The notes under the pieces were generated by a model. It was not told the DNA's origin. It did not search any database and was given only the letters and a program-made list of their open reading frames with translations. A stretch of DNA of 64,000 nt from a candidate division WOR-1 bacterium RIFOXYB2_FULL_42_35 (GTDB taxonomy: Bacteria; Margulisbacteria; WOR-1; O2-12-FULL-45-9): assembly GCA_001771545.1 (NCBI GenBank), contig MEUC01000029.1:1445-65444 (forward strand), in the 5' to 3' direction. Position numbers and translations under genes: made by a program. Shown one piece after another: positions 3,901 through 37,640 of this stretch; position 1 is the first letter of the stretch; each line of letters opens with the position of its first letter.

Positions 3901-5179
3901 TATTGAGCAGACACACGGAGTTGATCTTGGTTTTATAAGAAAGCAGGGCTTAACCGAAGTCGAAAAGTTTTTACCTGCGACCCAAACTGTGTTAGCCTGT
4001 TTAGGCAGTGAGAAATTTTTAAAAGACACTTGTGTTTTAACCTCATTATGGCAGCTTTGTTCTGTAGCGCAGGGAGCTGATCTTCCCTTAGTTAGGCAGG
4101 CTTTGCTGGAAAATTTAGTTCCGGCTTTTATAAACAGTAATGAAGCTGAAGTCCAAAAATTGCTTGGCCAAATTTTACTACAGCTAGGTTTAGTTGATAG
4201 GGAGTTTGAATCTGTAGCTGACTGGGCTGATTATATTAATCAAGTAGTCAGGCCTGGTTTGCAGGTATTATCAGGCCAGCTGGCTGATAGTGACGATGTT
4301 TTGTACAATTGGTTGTCAGCTATCGAAGGTCGTTTGCAAGCAGCAGAACAAGCCCAAATTAAAGCTGGCCAAACACTTTTGGGCGAGGTGTTTTATAGGA
4401 ATGTTCCTGATTTAAGGGCTTTAGATCCGCAGACTTTACTTAACCTGGCGCTTTATTTTAAAGCCAGGCAAGCAGTTGGTGATGATCCTCAATTTACAGG
4501 AACTATTACTGAAGTTCTACCCAAAGAAAAAATAGTTGATCCGAGAGAGCGAGCTTTACCAGTAACAGCTTCTCCTGCTGATCGATTGTCTGGCACTTTA
4601 GGAAAAGTAAGAAATCTTTTTGATACTGCTTTGAACGGGGCTGGTTTGGGTGTGCAAAACGCTCTTCAAGCAGCAATTAATGCTGTTAGTTCCTATCCTC
4701 ATCAAGAAGTATTTCTGCCTTTGACCATATTAACAAGCTTGTTGGCCCAGTTTGATTCTAATAATCCTAAAAAGGATGTTACTGCTGTTAGGGATATTAC
4801 ACCCCAAGATCCCCATACTGGCGAAAAAATAAGGTCTGTGCATGTTGCTGGTTTTTCCTGGAATAATGATAGCGTTAAATATTATGTCCGTTTAGTTGCC
4901 AGGCGCCATGCTACTTTTTTTGGTCAAGCGCGGATTAGTGTTACTGTTTTTGCTGATCAAGACCAGCAAAAAGAATTGGCAGCTTTTAGGATTGATCTGG
5001 AAAAAAGAGGCGCAACCATTGATTTGGGCGGTTTATTTATAGCCGAAGCTTTAAGCGTGAGAGCTAGCGGTTATCATTTTGCTTCTTTCTTGCCACGAGC
5101 CTTGTCTGACCCTGATACTTTTTCTAAGTTTATCCAAGATCTTCAGCAAAGGCTCTGGGCTAAGCTGGACGTTAAGTAA
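956..5179 (+). CDS. Very large hypothetical protein (1407 aa). No domain recognised. Rich in Leu, Ala and Gln.
   Basis: Uninterrupted 4.2-kb ORF with a TTG start in the ORF track. No recognisable catalytic motif. Composition is more GC-rich than neighbouring genes. Confidence 0.6.
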   Translation: MSSSDGQGLPIVSPPVQPTECLSSDHPKYLLQVLSEYIAEVRDYNSITSFNLGFVDQRSNQMTRPLGFMSLWLLLIWWEKDCQPLKENDLKGLLPDGQYKETIDNLIKAGWLQEVAGGLTPKLGHWQENPKRFCQLIVINLRFFLTASRQNDPGCKEDPVAFFLSMVEMDKELLSQCADQEKILVAKENLNNPWEKALMAFSIERKFYIFTFLSNLAQNIFEALGSLKEGSDIPLRSTRFPENTLFHKIFYSHDALSFRDKKEQFANASDQEMLRLNNLASFYDVPWRIAKVIAKGRAKPVFAGVSIGQIAGQPYIFIKNLFNFTPEQGSSFDISGSGGAPVIFLTASDSRDVSMAVFDQEMPCASIFSQVINRLLSNDVFLRIIEEKWDTLIFSKVLSEPTEPGQQRLLSMIKFFAPDGQLTDKESFLAFLFYMLVNPAFLGCDFVFGFVLPLFLNCIKNIDFANNTFSLNTENITALAEKLSQEREGQTQRPTNPSPPALVKALLPDLINCGLLDISVIQDTLQYHLSRELEDFVLLDKLPFGQPDFDQSSKEILVDYFVERGFLEKNGAGAVRLSAQKRQEVNASIRQQLIEIISPLPDNTGTTLSRNPQERTRIAEINPQLRGQSFAFKLRLDPAAISRFSQAGEVMPLAIPGFSSLVLLPSAKAARLKDAKTMLILGNGKRVRFYLFNDETRKLTLLSRVTEADFFNKESTPEMSFSSIPCLGKVNVLGATASEQQALAPLAKILADFNVQAFEVRDSLAFDCQWEGNTLVLRPTVLADLSQVDVLLLACNLLLARENEANKKIKIILQLFKTETRPELIKEMEAVVKELPEENLFRHYPGQMSAVIRLLHDFKDVKGRAPADLKRLLLERLLVFSQETRSSDFCSYTGQGTSNSIKLEQWPEQKTRFIGLGVAMVAESQVGLGSQGVDFFCSNPAKGHLLLYVYFRDREGKIIEKLYTLAGQPYEQHLMWERDLAVIEQTHGVDLGFIRKQGLTEVEKFLPATQTVLACLGSEKFLKDTCVLTSLWQLCSVAQGADLPLVRQALLENLVPAFINSNEAEVQKLLGQILLQLGLVDREFESVADWADYINQVVRPGLQVLSGQLADSDDVLYNWLSAIEGRLQAAEQAQIKAGQTLLGEVFYRNVPDLRALDPQTLLNLALYFKARQAVGDDPQFTGTITEVLPKEKIVDPRERALPVTASPADRLSGTLGKVRNLFDTALNGAGLGVQNALQAAINAVSSYPHQEVFLPLTILTSLLAQFDSNNPKKDVTAVRDITPQDPHTGEKIRSVHVAGFSWNNDSVKYYVRLVARRHATFFGQARISVTVFADQDQQKELAAFRIDLEKRGATIDLGGLFIAEALSVRASGYHFASFLPRALSDPDTFSKFIQDLQQRLWAKLDVK

Positions 5180-6988: not shown

Positions 6989-7843
6989 TTATTTATCTTC
7001 GTTGGCACGTTTAATCAATGGCAAGACCCCACCAGCCATGTCACCAATCACATTAACTAATTCAGTCCCGGCTGGCACCACAATTTTGGCATTGTTTTTG
7101 AGGGATTCAGAGACTGTTTCTAAACGTTTAAGTAATTGGGCATTGCCAACAAAATATTTTTCTGCGGCTTCGTTAACCAATTTAATTGCATCAGCTTCAG
7201 CTGTTGCTTTCAAACGAATTCCCTGGGCTTGCCCTTCAGCTTTTTTAATCTCTGCTCGACGATTACCATCAGCCTTTGTTTCTAGCGCCGTAGCAATATC
7301 CAGGGCAGCAATTTTTTCGTTTTCTGCCTTAACAACCATATTCATGGCCGCTTGCACATCAGCAGGCGGTTCAATTCTTTGCAATTCAACGCGGATAACA
7401 GTAATGCCCCAGGGATCAGTCTGTTTATCAAGGATTGCTTCAACTTCACTATTGATCTTATCTCTATTCTCGTTTGCTTCAGTCAAGGTCATTTTACCAA
7501 TCACAGCGCGCAAGGTGGTTTTTGCTAAAGATGGCACCGCAGAGAAGAAATCATTAACATTGTAAATAGCTTTGGTCGGGTCAACAACCTTATAATAGAC
7601 TACGCCATCAACTTCAGCATTAAGCTTATCTTTGGTAATGATTGATTGCGGCTCAATATCAACCCGTTGTTCGGTGATATTGATGCGATACATTTTCTGT
7701 ACCACAGGAATAAGAAAATGAAGGCCTGCCTCGGCTGTGCTGGAAAACTTTCCCAAGGTTTCAACAACCCCTTTTTCTACCGGTCGAACAATCTTAATCG
7801 TGTAATAGGCCAAGACAACAATAACTATAAATAACCAATACAT
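6989..7843 (-). CDS. SPFH/band-7 (stomatin/prohibitin-like, QmcA/YbbK family) membrane protein.
   Basis: N-terminal TM segment followed by an SPFH domain (…LRAVIGKMTLTEANENRDKINSEV…) and a C-terminal coiled coil. Confidence 0.8.
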   Translation of the reverse strand: MYWLFIVIVVLAYYTIKIVRPVEKGVVETLGKFSSTAEAGLHFLIPVVQKMYRINITEQRVDIEPQSIITKDKLNAEVDGVVYYKVVDPTKAIYNVNDFFSAVPSLAKTTLRAVIGKMTLTEANENRDKINSEVEAILDKQTDPWGITVIRVELQRIEPPADVQAAMNMVVKAENEKIAALDIATALETKADGNRRAEIKKAEGQAQGIRLKATAEADAIKLVNEAAEKYFVGNAQLLKRLETVSESLKNNAKIVVPAGTELVNVIGDMAGGVLPLIKRANEDK

Positions 7844-29929: not shown

Positions 29930-30090
29930 AAAGTCCAAAATAAGTCCAAAATCCCAAGAGCAAACTTACAAATTTGATCTTTTGACTTGGATCTTTGATA
30001 TTGTTTTGTCCCGCTTCCATCATCTGATAATTATTGCGGGATCCCGCAAGGCGGGAATCTTTGGACCTAGATCTTTGATCTTCCATATTA
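29930..30090. repeat. Palindromic array of heptamer-type repeats (CAAAGTC… then …TTTGATC) with an embedded TCCCGC-AAG-GCGGGA hairpin.
   Basis: Seen directly in the murE–femX intergenic region. Confidence 0.6.
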
Positions 30091-31155
30091 TTCCCCCAAA
30101 GAATCCTCAATCTTCCCTTTCTTAATCAAACTCCGTAAATTTTGAAACCACTGCAAACCATGCTCAAACAAATTGTAGAACAAGAGACTATGGGAAAAGT
30201 CGTAGGCACCAATATATTTAACAACTTTACCGCCAAAACCTTTTTTGAAACGATAAACACCAAACAATGGGTGCCCCTCAACAGGATTAGCAGGAATGCC
30301 CCACAAATCATAGGTTTTATAGCCTTTTTCTTTGGCCCATTGAATAATCTGCCAATGCAATAAGTGGTTGGGCATTTTATTGCGATGTTCTGAAGTTGAA
30401 GCCCCATACATGTACCAGACCTTGGAACCAAAGAAAAAAACAATTACCCCGGCAATCGGCATATTATTATAACAAGCAATAAAGTTTGTCCCTAGGCCCT
30501 TTTCAAAGAGAGTCTTTCTAATGGCCTGATAATATTTCAAGGGATGGACTAAGAAGTTGTCCCTCTGAGCGGTTTTTTCATACATCTCATAGAAAATATT
30601 GATCCCCTGCTCACTCGGATCCTCTCGGACGATAATGACCTTTTTCTCCGCCAAACGCACATTGTAGCGGGTTTTCTCATCAAAGCTCATGAGGATTTTA
30701 TCTGCATCAGGTTGTAAGTCCAAAAGAATAGTTGCCCGTGGCTGGATTTGCTTTTTAGCCTTTTCAAAACCTGAACTATTGATAGTATCTAAAACCAAAT
30801 GTTGATTCTCCAACACAGCTGGATCAACCTTGAGAGAAATCGCCTTATGTTTTTCGGCTTCTTTTTCTACTGCATCAAGTAAAAATCCTAAAAGTTGGCG
30901 GTTGCCAAAATCTACAACTGGACCGCGAGGGGCATAGAAAATTGAATGTTTGATGTAGGGAATTTCTCGTTTAAGAATCGATATACCAGCAACTATTTTG
31001 CCCTGATCCTCCATTGCGATGCGAATCGGCTGCCAACCAAATTGTGATTTCAATTCTCCCCATTCAAATGATTGCAGGACTGGACATTCGGAAGAATTAG
31101 CCACAAAATCATTCCACAGTTTTCTATCAGGATAAGTAATTAGTCGGGATTGCAT
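30088..31155 (-). CDS. FemAB-family peptidoglycan peptide-bridge aminoacyl-tRNA transferase (FemX-like).
   Basis: Fem/GNAT tandem-fold motifs …KVWYMYGASTSEHRN… Adjacent to murE. Confidence 0.7.
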   Translation of the reverse strand: MQSRLITYPDRKLWNDFVANSSECPVLQSFEWGELKSQFGWQPIRIAMEDQGKIVAGISILKREIPYIKHSIFYAPRGPVVDFGNRQLLGFLLDAVEKEAEKHKAISLKVDPAVLENQHLVLDTINSSGFEKAKKQIQPRATILLDLQPDADKILMSFDEKTRYNVRLAEKKVIIVREDPSEQGINIFYEMYEKTAQRDNFLVHPLKYYQAIRKTLFEKGLGTNFIACYNNMPIAGVIVFFFGSKVWYMYGASTSEHRNKMPNHLLHWQIIQWAKEKGYKTYDLWGIPANPVEGHPLFGVYRFKKGFGGKVVKYIGAYDFSHSLLFYNLFEHGLQWFQNLRSLIKKGKIEDSLGE

Positions 31156-31366
31156 GTCTAACGGTTATTATATCAACCATTAATTAGAAGGACAAACAAA
31201 AAGCGCCCGGCTTTAGCTTTCAAATCCTGCAAGGGACTTACTCGCCAAAGCCAGGCTGTTTTTTATTCGTCCCCGATGTAACATCGGAAAACAGGAATAA
31301 GTCTTGGACTTAATTTTGCACGCTCTGCATTTCCGTAGAGATACAAACTCCGGCATCTTTAAGTAT

Positions 31367-31448
31367 TCGACCAGGTGAACCGCGTTGTTGTTATAACGAT
31401 TATCAGGGTTGTTGTTGTTGTTGCGGTTCGCGTTGTTCAGAGAACGCC
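31367..31448 (-). repeat. DGR template repeat (TR), adenine-rich on the minus strand with AAC codons.
   Basis: 82-bp match to 32845-32926 with 12 mismatches. All 12 are A in this copy (minus strand). Confidence 0.85.
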
Positions 31449-31460
31449 GGATTTACAGGC

Positions 31461-32456
31461 TTATCCCTTTATTAAAATATTAGAAAACAATTTTCTCCTT
31501 AGATGGAATGAATTGGCAAATACGGCGTACCCCAGCCAGCTTTGTATTGAGCAAGTAATCTTGGGTATGGACATTAAGTTGCTTTGAAAAAGGCTGATAT
31601 ATTTTCTCATTCTTATTTTAAAGCGCTTGACGTTTTCTTTGGCCACCAGCTTATGGCTGGGATAAACCTTATAGCCAAGAAACTTCACGCCGTTCTTAGT
31701 TGGATAGACCTGGCATTTATTAGCATGCAGTTGCAGCTTTAGCTTTTCAAGATAATCAGCAATTCTTTTTCTGGCCTGGTTTAGCTGTCCTTTATCATTA
31801 CCAAATACTATCAGGTCGTCCATATAACGGAGGTAAAACCGGCATTTAAGGTTTTCTTTTAAATAATGGTCTAACCCATTGAGATAAAGATTGGCAAATA
31901 TCTGGCTAGCTAAATTCCCAATCGGAATCCCAGGAGAAGGTGTTGAATCAATAATTAGTTTAATCAGCCAAAGAGCTTCCGGGTCTTTTATCTTATCCAT
32001 AATCATCCCGAGTAAGATTTCGTGATCTATGGAAGCAAAATAGTTTTTAACGTCGCACTTCAAAGCATATTTATTTTTGCGGCAATATACTTGAAACCGG
32101 CTAACAGCCCGATGGCTGCCTTTGCTTTTCCGGCAAGCGTAGGAATCGAAGATCAGCACCCGATCAAAAATGGGCTCAATGACATTGCAAAGTGCATGCT
32201 GGGCAACTCGATCTCGGTAAGGCAAGGCACTGATTAGTCTCTTTTTCGGATCATAGATATGGAATTGCTTGTAGTGACCAACCCGATATGTGTGGCTTTG
32301 GAGTTCTGCCTGAAGAGTAAAAATCTCTTTTTCAAAACCAAGATTAAAATCGCTGACAGGGGTTTTGAGCTTCTTGCCTCTCTGGGCCTTCCCGGCCGCT
32401 AAAAGGAGGTTCTCAAAAGAGCAGATTTTCTCATAAAGATTATGATGCCTTTTCAT
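31461..32456 (-). CDS. Diversity-generating-retroelement reverse transcriptase.
   Basis: RT motifs …RYMDDLIVFG… and the DGR-specific IPIGNLASQIFANLYLNGLD. Flanked by TR and VR. Confidence 0.85.
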   Translation of the reverse strand: MKRHHNLYEKICSFENLLLAAGKAQRGKKLKTPVSDFNLGFEKEIFTLQAELQSHTYRVGHYKQFHIYDPKKRLISALPYRDRVAQHALCNVIEPIFDRVLIFDSYACRKSKGSHRAVSRFQVYCRKNKYALKCDVKNYFASIDHEILLGMIMDKIKDPEALWLIKLIIDSTPSPGIPIGNLASQIFANLYLNGLDHYLKENLKCRFYLRYMDDLIVFGNDKGQLNQARKRIADYLEKLKLQLHANKCQVYPTKNGVKFLGYKVYPSHKLVAKENVKRFKIRMRKYISLFQSNLMSIPKITCSIQSWLGYAVFANSFHLRRKLFSNILIKG

Positions 32457-32778
32457 GTTTTAGCCAGCCCCCAACCTGGGAACCGATTTCCAAAAGATAT
32501 CGGGCAGCGAACTCATAGCTCTTAAGATTGATCAAACGCAGATCATGGCTAAGGCGAAACAGATAGCGCAGCTTTTCAATTTCAAGATTTGCGTTCTTAA
32601 GCGCATTAGTTTTGTCTTTGGAATATTGGGCTTCAATGAGAAGCTCCAACAGGCCAATTACTTTATTTTCGATTCTTTCTCCGAGGGTATATCTTTGATT
32701 GCGCGGGAACTTCGCAATGTGGGGGACGACCCATCTGAGGAAATCATAGGAACAGGTTACGACTTTTGGCCCTTCCAT
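32440..32778 (-). CDS. Probable DGR accessory variability determinant (Avd-like small helical protein).
   Basis: 112-aa helical ORF between the VR-bearing target and the RT. Overlaps the RT start by 17 nt. Confidence 0.5.
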   Translation of the reverse strand: MEGPKVVTCSYDFLRWVVPHIAKFPRNQRYTLGERIENKVIGLLELLIEAQYSKDKTNALKNANLEIEKLRYLFRLSHDLRLINLKSYEFAARYLLEIGSQVGGWLKHEKAS

Positions 32779-32837: not shown

Positions 32838-33500
32838 TTAGTCCTCGACCAGGTGAACCGCGCTGCTGCCATAACGATCATCAGGGCTGCTGCTGAAGTT
32901 GCGGTTCGCGTAGTACAGAGAACGCCAATAGTAGGTGTCACTCCCCTTGCTGCTTTCTACCAAAAACCAATTATTCCCTCTCAGTTTAGCTTTCACATCA
33001 GCTGGTAAAGCCACAAATTCAGCCTCAGTCATAAACCTAAACTTTCTGCCTCGTTCATTTGCTCCTTTAATATAGTTCTTCGCATCATCCACATTTAAAA
33101 ACGTCAATGTCTCTCCGCTCGGCTCTTTCAAGCGGTCCCGAAGCGCTTCCTTGTTATGGCCGCTAACTTTCTCTGGCTTTAAGAATTGTGCGGCTTCAGC
33201 GTCTGTTAATTCTCCTATCATTATTTTTTTATAAGTTTGCCCCTCAACATTAAGCATATGCGGGAAAATTGTCTCGGGCTGGACTATATCCACAAGTTCT
33301 ATTTGAATGGCAACAGGATCTCGCCTTTGAGCTAGTAGAGATGGGAGGTCAGCGACCTTGTCTTCTGGTCTAAAACCTGGTCCTTTATGACCTGCCAGTC
33401 TTTTTGCCATTGCCTCTACTTTGGCTTTGTCTGACACTCCATCACTGGCACGGACTAGAACAGAACCTAAACTCTTTTTATCAATCCTTAAAAAACTCAT
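32838..33500 (-). CDS. DGR variable (target) protein with a minimal C-type-lectin/FGE-like fold. The VR lies at the C-terminus.
   Basis: …RKFRFMTEAEFVA… then WRSLYYANRNFSSSPDDRYGSSAVHLVED, encoded by the VR. Confidence 0.75.
   Translation of the reverse strand: MSFLRIDKKSLGSVLVRASDGVSDKAKVEAMAKRLAGHKGPGFRPEDKVADLPSLLAQRRDPVAIQIELVDIVQPETIFPHMLNVEGQTYKKIMIGELTDAEAAQFLKPEKVSGHNKEALRDRLKEPSGETLTFLNVDDAKNYIKGANERGRKFRFMTEAEFVALPADVKAKLRGNNWFLVESSKGSDTYYWRSLYYANRNFSSSPDDRYGSSAVHLVED
32845..32926 (-). repeat. DGR variable repeat (VR).
   Basis: Pairs with the TR at 31367-31448. The substitutions A→G (8) and A→T (4) all fall at TR adenines. Confidence 0.85.
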
Positions 33501-33588
33501 TCATCTTCCTCCTCGCATTGCCCTTGTTAAACCTGGCGGGCTTTGCTAATATATATATCGTAAGGTTTTTTAAGAAATTTCAGTTTAT

Positions 33589-33897
33589 TTGAAAATAGTT
33601 TTGGGAGGAGAAGGCATGGTGCCAAAAAAAGAACTTAACACGGCAGTTAAACTCGCCAAAGAATACGGTGTGGGAAAATTGTATTTGTTTGGGTCTTCTT
33701 TGCATAAAAAATCCAGCGCAGTGAACGATTACGACTTCGCCGTAGCAGGCATCGCCCCTTCCAGGTTCTTTGCGTTTTATGGCAAATTATTTAGGGCTTT
33801 AAGCAAACCCGTCGATCTTGTCGATCTTTCGGAAAAATCTCTTTTTAATTCTCTCATAATAAGGGAAGGGAAGAAAATCTATGATAAATCTTCCTGA
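33589..33897 (+). CDS. Minimal nucleotidyltransferase (MntA-like antitoxin).
   Basis: GKLYLFGSSLHKKSSAVNDYDFAV matches the pol-beta NTase motif GS…D.D. Its 3' end overlaps the following HEPN gene. Confidence 0.65.
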   Translation: MKIVLGGEGMVPKKELNTAVKLAKEYGVGKLYLFGSSLHKKSSAVNDYDFAVAGIAPSRFFAFYGKLFRALSKPVDLVDLSEKSLFNSLIIREGKKIYDKSS

Positions 33898-34297
33898 GAA
33901 AATTTCCGCAGAAATAGACAATATAGAAAAATCCCTGGCCAATCTTTCCTCGCCCCTAAAGAAAAAGAAGAAATCAATTATAGAAATAGCGGGGATGGCC
34001 GCTTTCATCCAAAACATTTACAATGGTATCGAAAACATTTTAAAACAAATATTGAAGTCCAAAAACGTTTCTGTTGCTCACCCTGAAATATGGCACAAGG
34101 AATTACTGGAAAAATCAGTTAAAAACAACATCATCCCCGACGAGCTGGCCGAAGCACTTTACGAGTATCTCACCTTCAGGCATTTTTTTATCCATTCTTA
34201 TAGTTTTATGCTGGACAAAAAAAAAGTAGTTGCGCTGGCAAACAACATAAACAAGCTTTGGCAAAAGTTTTTAGGAGAAATAAAACCTTACCGGTAA
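33881..34297 (+). CDS. HEPN-domain (HepT-like) toxin.
   Basis: The R-x4-H motif in …[10 protein letters not shown]…. Confidence 0.6.
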
Positions 34298-35666: not shown

Positions 35667-37289
<1,623 letters not shown>

Positions 37290-37297
<8 letters not shown>

Positions 37298-37640
37298 AAA
37301 TGGTCCCCTTCTTTATATTATCAACAACTTGCTTAACGCGAATATCTCTTATCCCTGCAGGAGTTAAAAGATCAACTTTTCTACCAAATGAATCTTCAAG
37401 AAAAAAAGCCAAATCCATAAAATTATCAAAACTGGTTTTCTTAAATTCAACAACCAAATCTATATCACTTTGGCTACTTTGTTCACCCCGGGCAAAAGAA
37501 CCAAACAAGCCAATGCGTTTAACATTAAATTTCTGCAAAACCCCGCTATTTTTCTTTAAAAAGCCTAAAATATCATCAGCCGTAAGATTTTTGCCATCTT
37601 TTCCTTTTTTATCATCTTTCATGTTTATTAGTATACCCAA
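37290..37640 (-). CDS. Nucleotidyltransferase antitoxin (MntA family).
   Basis: IGLFGSFARGEQSSQSDIDLVV. Confidence 0.7.

Follow-up and report, generated by a model that had tools for sequence, protein, structure and literature searches.

A compact lectin-domain variable protein, probably located in the cytoplasm or exported outside the Sec pathway, encoded by a diversity-generating retroelement of a candidate division WOR-1 bacterium

What kind of protein does a diversity-generating retroelement (DGR) diversify when its target is only 220 residues long and carries no visible export signal? The question is raised by a 64-kb stretch of contig MEUC01000029.1 from candidate division WOR-1 bacterium RIFOXYB2_FULL_42_35, which belongs to Candidatus Saganbacteria (Cyanobacteriota/Melainabacteria group). 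The whole analysed stretch is called the window here, and positions are counted from its first nucleotide. The gene at 32838..33500 on the minus strand belongs to an intact cellular DGR and very likely codes for its variable protein. This protein is predicted to consist of a trimmed C-type lectin (CLec) domain of the formylglycine-generating enzyme (FGE) type, preceded by a decayed copy of an N-terminal module, and is probably either cytoplasmic or exported by a non-Sec route.

The cassette lies on the minus strand in the order target, Avd, reverse transcriptase (RT), template repeat (TR), with the TR downstream of the RT and not between the target and the RT. The Avd accessory protein (112 aa, 32440..32778) matched PF22296 bAvd at 1.2e-20 and NF033474 DivGenRetAVD with 110 bits (cutoff 80). 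The RT (331 aa, 31461..32456) matched RVT_1 at 7.5e-26 and contains the motifs IGNLASQ at residue 179 and YMDD, intact, at residue 211. The comparison of repeats placed the TR at 31367..31448, 3' of the RT, and the variable region (VR) at 32845..32926, where it occupies codons 192-219 of 220, the last ~27 codons of the target gene. The TR/VR core comprises 82 nt with 12 differences, all 12 of which fall on the 28 TR adenines and none on the 54 other positions (Fisher p = 3.7e-7). The TR contains 12 AAY codons, and 10 VR codons are substituted relative to it. The initial annotation had named this protein as the bearer of a VR, and the adenine-confined TR/VR pair together with the linked RT and Avd genes bears this out; the past homing of the window VR is certain. 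The invariant 3' end of the VR, GCGGTTCACCTGGTCGA (32845..32862, minus strand), is GC-rich, with 17 nt identical in the TR/VR alignment, and resembles an initiation of mutagenic homing (IMH) element. Past GCGGTTCACCTGGTCGA non-A mismatches set in between TR and VR, the pattern expected where an IMH ends, and by analogy with the IMH of BPP-1 the invariant segment would act like one. A second VR for this TR was not found in the window.

By analogy with characterised DGRs, the RT and Avd would copy the TR RNA, transcribed 3' of the RT gene, into cDNA, misincorporating nucleotides at random where the template has adenine, and the cDNA would then replace the last ~27 target codons by mutagenic retrohoming. 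Each of the 12 AAY codons of the TR could thereby give about 15 residues, corresponding to the order of 10^14 variants. The steps themselves are those of characterised DGRs, whereas the adenine-specific TR/VR pattern was observed directly in the window.

Between the TR and the next gene, which encodes a FemAB-family protein (30088-31155), there are ~200 nt of non-coding DNA (31156-31366, minus strand) closed by a hairpin and T-run, aaagccgggcgctttttg, which is plausibly the terminator of the RT-TR transcript. A promoter and terminator scan gave results at chance level, and no compositional island signal was seen around the cassette. Two plus-strand open reading frames (ORFs), at 31375-31587 (MNRVVVITIIRVVVVV...) and 32853-33008 (MNRAAAITIIRAAAEV...), are the TR and the VR read on the opposite strand; they were rejected as genes and are regarded as ORF-caller artefacts.

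The target gene is a complete, maximal ORF, and its reported size of 220 aa stands. The ORF listing showed an in-frame stop upstream of the start and no longer possible reading; a Shine-Dalgarno sequence, GGAGG (33508..33512, minus strand), is visible in the DNA 7 nt ahead of the ATG, and a divergent neighbouring gene starts 88 nt from the target gene. The gene has no upstream extension. Both peptides quoted in the initial annotation (KFRFMTEAEFVA, AMAKRLAGHKGPGFRPEDKVADLPSLLAQRRDP) were recovered in the translation. The homologue search found the protein to be 100% identical to NCBI hypothetical protein A2291_06605 of the same organism. The protein itself had no match in Pfam, NCBIfam, PADLOC, PHROGs, or PDB sequences, its best Pfam score (Phage_tail_C, 13.8 bits) being at chance level.

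The fold was approached through structure prediction and through relatives. The AlphaFold2 (AF2) model, built on a seven-sequence alignment, had predicted local distance difference test (pLDDT) values of ~90 for residues 78-200 and below 50 for residues 1-74. The structure-match values were highest for PvdO (10.0), OvoA (9.7), and TvpA, a Treponema DGR variable protein (9.6), followed by EgtB-IV (9.1), an FGE paralogue (8.1), Mtd (5.9), and TaqVP (5.2), with canonical C-type lectin domains forming a long tail at about 4.5; the top matches were aligned over 124-131 residues. In the model, the VR spans the end of strand 190-194, a loop, and the terminal strand 217-219. Among the compact relatives, 44 of 79 matched PF03781 (FGE-sulfatase) at E<=0.01 (best 6e-14; mostly above 23.3 bits), covering model positions ~25-142 of 255 and continuing into a VR-bearing tail. 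The predicted model and this family-level, transitive homology together point to a compact FGE-subclass C-type lectin domain at residues ~78-220 (32841..33269, minus strand), which appears to be a trimmed FGE-sulfatase domain with the core kept and roughly half of the canonical 255 positions missing. A CLec/FGE-like fold had been proposed from the start, and the confidently predicted residues 78-200 with their FGE-type matches agree with it. The restriction of this fold to the last ~80 residues was too narrow, the domain beginning at about residue 78 and covering ~143 residues. The protein contains no cysteine; the catalytic pair of formylglycine-generating enzymes is thus absent, this enzymatic function is ruled out, and the domain is best read as a binding module or scaffold.

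With the domain so delimited, the part in front of it comprises ~76-77 residues (33270..33500, minus strand) rather than the ~110 residues previously left unassigned. This segment is poorly predicted in the model, and conservation within the close family starts at about residue 77. In 39-42 cluster representatives of the wider family, the corresponding position is occupied by a module of ~100 residues, termed here the N-module, which is always found at the N-terminus. What follows it is the compact lectin domain in some relatives and, in others (P0023, P0049, P0068, and P0093), a full-length PF03781 domain that ends in a VR-like tail. Its consensus reads RLTVxEQVSR...LAxEVxGP...TPLG...IDxxAAExD, with invariant T58, G61, D78, and D85 (alignment A4), and it was modelled as a small alpha/beta domain (AF2 pLDDT 86, predicted template modelling score (pTM) 0.72). 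The N-module had no match in Pfam and NCBIfam, only chance-level hits among PDB sequences, and none in viral predicted structures at E<=0.001. The orthologue of the window protein in locus L002, P0005, holds a full, well-folded N-module of ~100 aa at the same position. In BLASTP the window protein aligned with P0005 from residue 31 onwards, with an internal deletion of 26 residues that takes away the TPLG strand and the first part of the long helix (ID..AAE.D). Of the conserved motifs that mark membership, TPLG and the ID..AAE.D start are thus missing from the window protein, which would carry a remnant at most. Residues 1-76 are most likely a decayed copy of the N-module with this internal deletion, a reading drawn from orthology, position, and the pairwise alignment and not from demonstrated homology. 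As to the role of the N-module, docking or oligomerisation may be guessed.

No transmembrane (TM) or signal-like stretch and no lipobox were found in the target, the maximum Kyte-Doolittle 19-mer score being 0.84, in agreement with the initial annotation, which saw neither a signal peptide nor a TM segment. By the same hydropathy measure, 120 of 121 relatives lacked a TM or signal-like stretch, and the remaining one barely reached 1.6. A Sec signal, lipobox, and TM segment are missing from both the protein and its family, which makes a cytoplasmic location, or export by a non-Sec route, probable. The corresponding earlier suggestion of an intracellular or non-classically exported protein is reasonable, although unproven and not new for targets of this kind.

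The family became visible through an exhaustive profile HMM search of 1.84 billion representatives, which returned 115 cluster representatives at E<=1e-3, while word-indexed homologue searches returned 4, 7, and 13 proteins. Together with earlier matches, 118 sequences were analysed; 90 of them had the full domain, which ended <=5 residues from the C-terminus in 72. The family tails are VR-like and end in RLVED. An orthologous cassette with the same gene order and the TR after the RT was found in locus L002 (TR at 6992-7073) and in the fragment L013, with identities to the window cassette of 70% for the RT, 83% for Avd, and 50% for the target; in L002, 15 of 17 TR/VR differences are at adenines. 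A locus search with alignment A1 found nothing in genome_contigs or viral_contigs and a single fragment in metagenome_contigs, itself a further copy of the L002 cassette.

Several other members occur in settings of their own. An identical 226-aa protein, P0120, was found in two genomic contexts (L005 4132-5681 and L006 5001-5681); its copy in L005, from another WOR-1 genome, stands in tandem behind a 265-aa FGE-sulfatase protein, and the tandem lectin genes of L005 share no common VR at the DNA level. The divergent members P0004 and P0120 are found in one and the same chromosomal slot, beside proB-L27-L21-DUF2344 (L003/L014 and L006, upstream of the member). The toxin-antitoxin pair lies on one side in L003/L014 and on the other in L006, an arrangement suggestive of a variable hotspot for insertions. 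The distant member P0108 (L010 687-6664, L011 134-5243) is located within a cluster of genes for a DUF6504 protein, unknown proteins, and a Y-family polymerase (IMS). LexA heads this cluster in L010, and the L011 contig ends short of that upstream point. The cluster resembles an SOS-mutagenesis cassette, and no RT is nearby.

Several results weigh against the assignment of the target as a trimmed FGE-type, non-Sec variable protein of an intact DGR. On the window protein itself, PF03781 gave no match even at E<=1, and the fold rests on the model predicted from seven sequences plus homology at the family level. An N-module profile built without the window protein scored 2.6 bits on it, and hhalign gave a probability of 1.2%, neither being significant; with such marginal profile support the earlier view of the N-terminus as unassigned keeps part of its ground, against which stands the alignment to the N-module of the orthologue. 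The localisation was judged by hydropathy alone, a crude measure. Among the loci sampled, an RT or TR adjoins the gene only in the window and in the L002/L013 lineage; in L001, L003/L014, and L004-L012 neither was found in DNA up to 10 kb on each side, and these RT-less family genes would be trans targets or orphans. Finally, one and the same VR is carried by 8 contigs, 4 metagenome-assembled genome (MAG) accessions, and the near-identical variant P0122, which differs elsewhere. Since every assembled copy carries the same VR, the element may be quiescent at present, although assemblies are consensus sequences in which minority VR variants would be hidden.

The identical VR bears on the possibility that the element is a decaying or domesticated relic, whose product is no longer diversified and either acts as a lectin of fixed specificity or is heading for loss, the degraded N-terminus being part of the decay. 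The 26-aa deletion in the N-module and the several orphan relatives without an RT nearby point the same way, but the RT with its YMDD and IGNLASQ motifs, Avd, the TR, and the IMH-like segment are all intact, and so is the target ORF with its strong ribosome-binding site. Recent homing is favoured by the TR/VR differences, every one of which is a clean A substitution, the 54 non-adenine positions showing no drift at all. The masking of minority variants by consensus assembly applies here as well; a relic is considered unlikely. Far less credit is due to the idea that the 220-aa ORF is the N-terminally truncated piece of a larger multi-domain target, produced by a miscalled start or an assembly error. 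Large multi-domain architectures are common among DGR targets and the N-terminus of this one is poorly predicted, but the upstream stop, the maximal ORF with its GGAGG, and the divergent gene so close by all contradict it. The identical protein is also present on 8 contigs, and the relatives measure 160-290 aa, with a Met start in 118 of 121; truncation was rejected as extremely improbable. Of another kind is the proposal that the protein is a surface-exposed or secreted adhesin that attaches to other cells or particles and leaves the cell by non-Sec export or with the help of a partner to which the N-terminal segment binds. The majority of cellular DGR targets are anchored in the membrane and bind extracellular ligands (PMC8144416), a role in host interaction was proposed for targets of the type found in the candidate phyla radiation (CPR) (PMC5006420, PMC10907252), and the conserved N-module of the relatives could be a docking domain. 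In the window protein, however, that module is internally deleted, the target and 120 of 121 relatives were negative for a signal peptide, lipobox, and TM segment, and genes for secretion or pili adjoin the target gene in none of the sampled loci. An adhesin is a possible reading, and a doubtful one.

A different function may be read from the neighbouring genes. The divergent neighbour at 33589..34297 on the plus strand is a toxin-antitoxin pair, recognised by Pfam matches, of an MNT protein (Polbeta nucleotidyltransferase) and a HepT-like HEPN toxin. On this basis the target could be a cytoplasmic sensor working with the MNT-HEPN pair, in which the HEPN RNase would be released or activated once the diversified lectin surface has bound an invader molecule, amounting to programmable abortive infection. 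In L002 an orthologous pair (4011-4686; 52% and 55% identity) stands at the same place, divergent beside the orthologous DGR, despite differing outer flanks. Unrelated MNT-HEPN pairs abut family members in L003 (1616-2654)/L014 (10908-11925) and in L006 (4189-4853), while the whole 64-kb window contains only two such pairs. Moreover, the protein is apparently cytoplasmic, and other lineages are known to have conflict systems whose cytoplasmic sensors are diversified by DGRs (PMC10907252). A rough estimate puts the chance probability of the repeated adjacency at about 0.02, but the sample is small and partly non-independent, and no pair adjoins the gene in L001, L004, L005, L007, L008/L009, L010/L011, or L012. 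MNT-HEPN pairs are also very common in such genomes, where they often mark variable islands; the target had no PADLOC match, and the matches of the MNT protein were weak and to the candidate system PDC-S09. A functional link drawn from adjacency is thus of low probability, and the sensor reading is improbable. The second pair of the window (36959-37640, minus strand) lies 3 kb from the DGR and has 38-43% identity to the pair abutting the member in L006.

A variable protein of an intact cellular DGR, compact and probably non-Sec or cytoplasmic, remains the preferred reading, and its interest lies partly in what the locus makes accessible. The site and ligand of small CPR-type DGR targets are an acknowledged open question. 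For this question the locus serves as a clean test case rather than as an answer, with an intact cassette and an orthologous locus for comparison. An FGE-type domain of 143 residues, about half the usual size, is attractive for structural or display work, and a recurrent N-module without a known relative could be a handle for finding a partner. The repeated MNT-HEPN adjacency provides a hypothesis that is cheap to test. In a bolder version, for which we see only a slender chance, the variable lectin would serve a two-part immune module as its diversifiable sensor, with MNT-HEPN as the effector, or the N-module would be a new docking domain linking DGR-diversified binders to a cellular machine. 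If the former were true, the DGR would reprogramme what a toxin-antitoxin system responds to.

Close counterparts among known systems are the FGE-subclass CLec variable proteins of two DGRs, TvpA of Treponema denticola (PDB 2Y3C) and Mtd of Bordetella phage BPP-1 (PDB 1YU0). Compared with these, the domain described here has ~143 residues instead of ~210-280, shares 14-15% sequence identity, and carries a VR about half as long (27 codons vs. ~45; PMC5006420). The target lacks the lipoprotein signal present in TvpA and the phage-tail context of Mtd. In comparison with the PF03781 proteins (FGE, PvdO, and the C-terminal domains of EgtB/OvoA), positions ~25-142 and the C-terminal strand region have been kept in the family, with the window protein below detection; in contrast to the enzymes of this group, it has no cysteines and hence no FGE-type catalysis. 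The cytoplasmic CLec conflict sensors (PMC10907252, PMC7517822) have in common with the present target a predicted cytoplasmic CLec domain and conflict-type neighbours, here MNT-HEPN. However, those of multicellular bacteria and cyanobacteria are large fusions with STAND NTPases, MoxR-associated proteins, or kinases, whereas the CLec domain described here is free-standing with a short N-terminal segment, and its link to the toxin-antitoxin pair is one of adjacency alone.

The target resembles the small CLec-only targets of the CPR/DPANN type (PMC5758913; PMC5006420; Paul 2017, as cited in PMC8144416), which are short, with little beyond the CLec domain and no TM segment, signal, or other recognisable domain, come from uncultivated groundwater lineages, and have a short VR. 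The smallest DGR targets are reported to have no more than a CLec or Ig fold (Wu 2018, PMC5758913), and targets of the CPR clade are typically devoid of TM segments or other conserved domains, although their genuinely non-membrane-bound status 'remains to be established' (Roux 2021, PMC8144416). A further example is AvpA, an archaeal CLec target of 256 residues with a VR of 27 residues (PMC5006420); it represents a separate CLec subclass, with an internal VR and a 46-residue tail, while the fold of the window protein is of the FGE subclass. The relatives of the window protein include a protein of Patescibacteria (P0119), but its own host belongs to Saganbacteria and not to CPR. Predicted cytoplasmic DGR targets have also been described (Dore 2024, PMC10907252; Vallota-Eastman 2020, PMC7517822). 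The target therefore fits an already described class, that of small CPR-type CLec targets without TM segment or signal, and is fairly ordinary within it; specific to this locus are the Saganbacteria host, the particularly compact FGE-type domain, and the unannotated N-module of its family.
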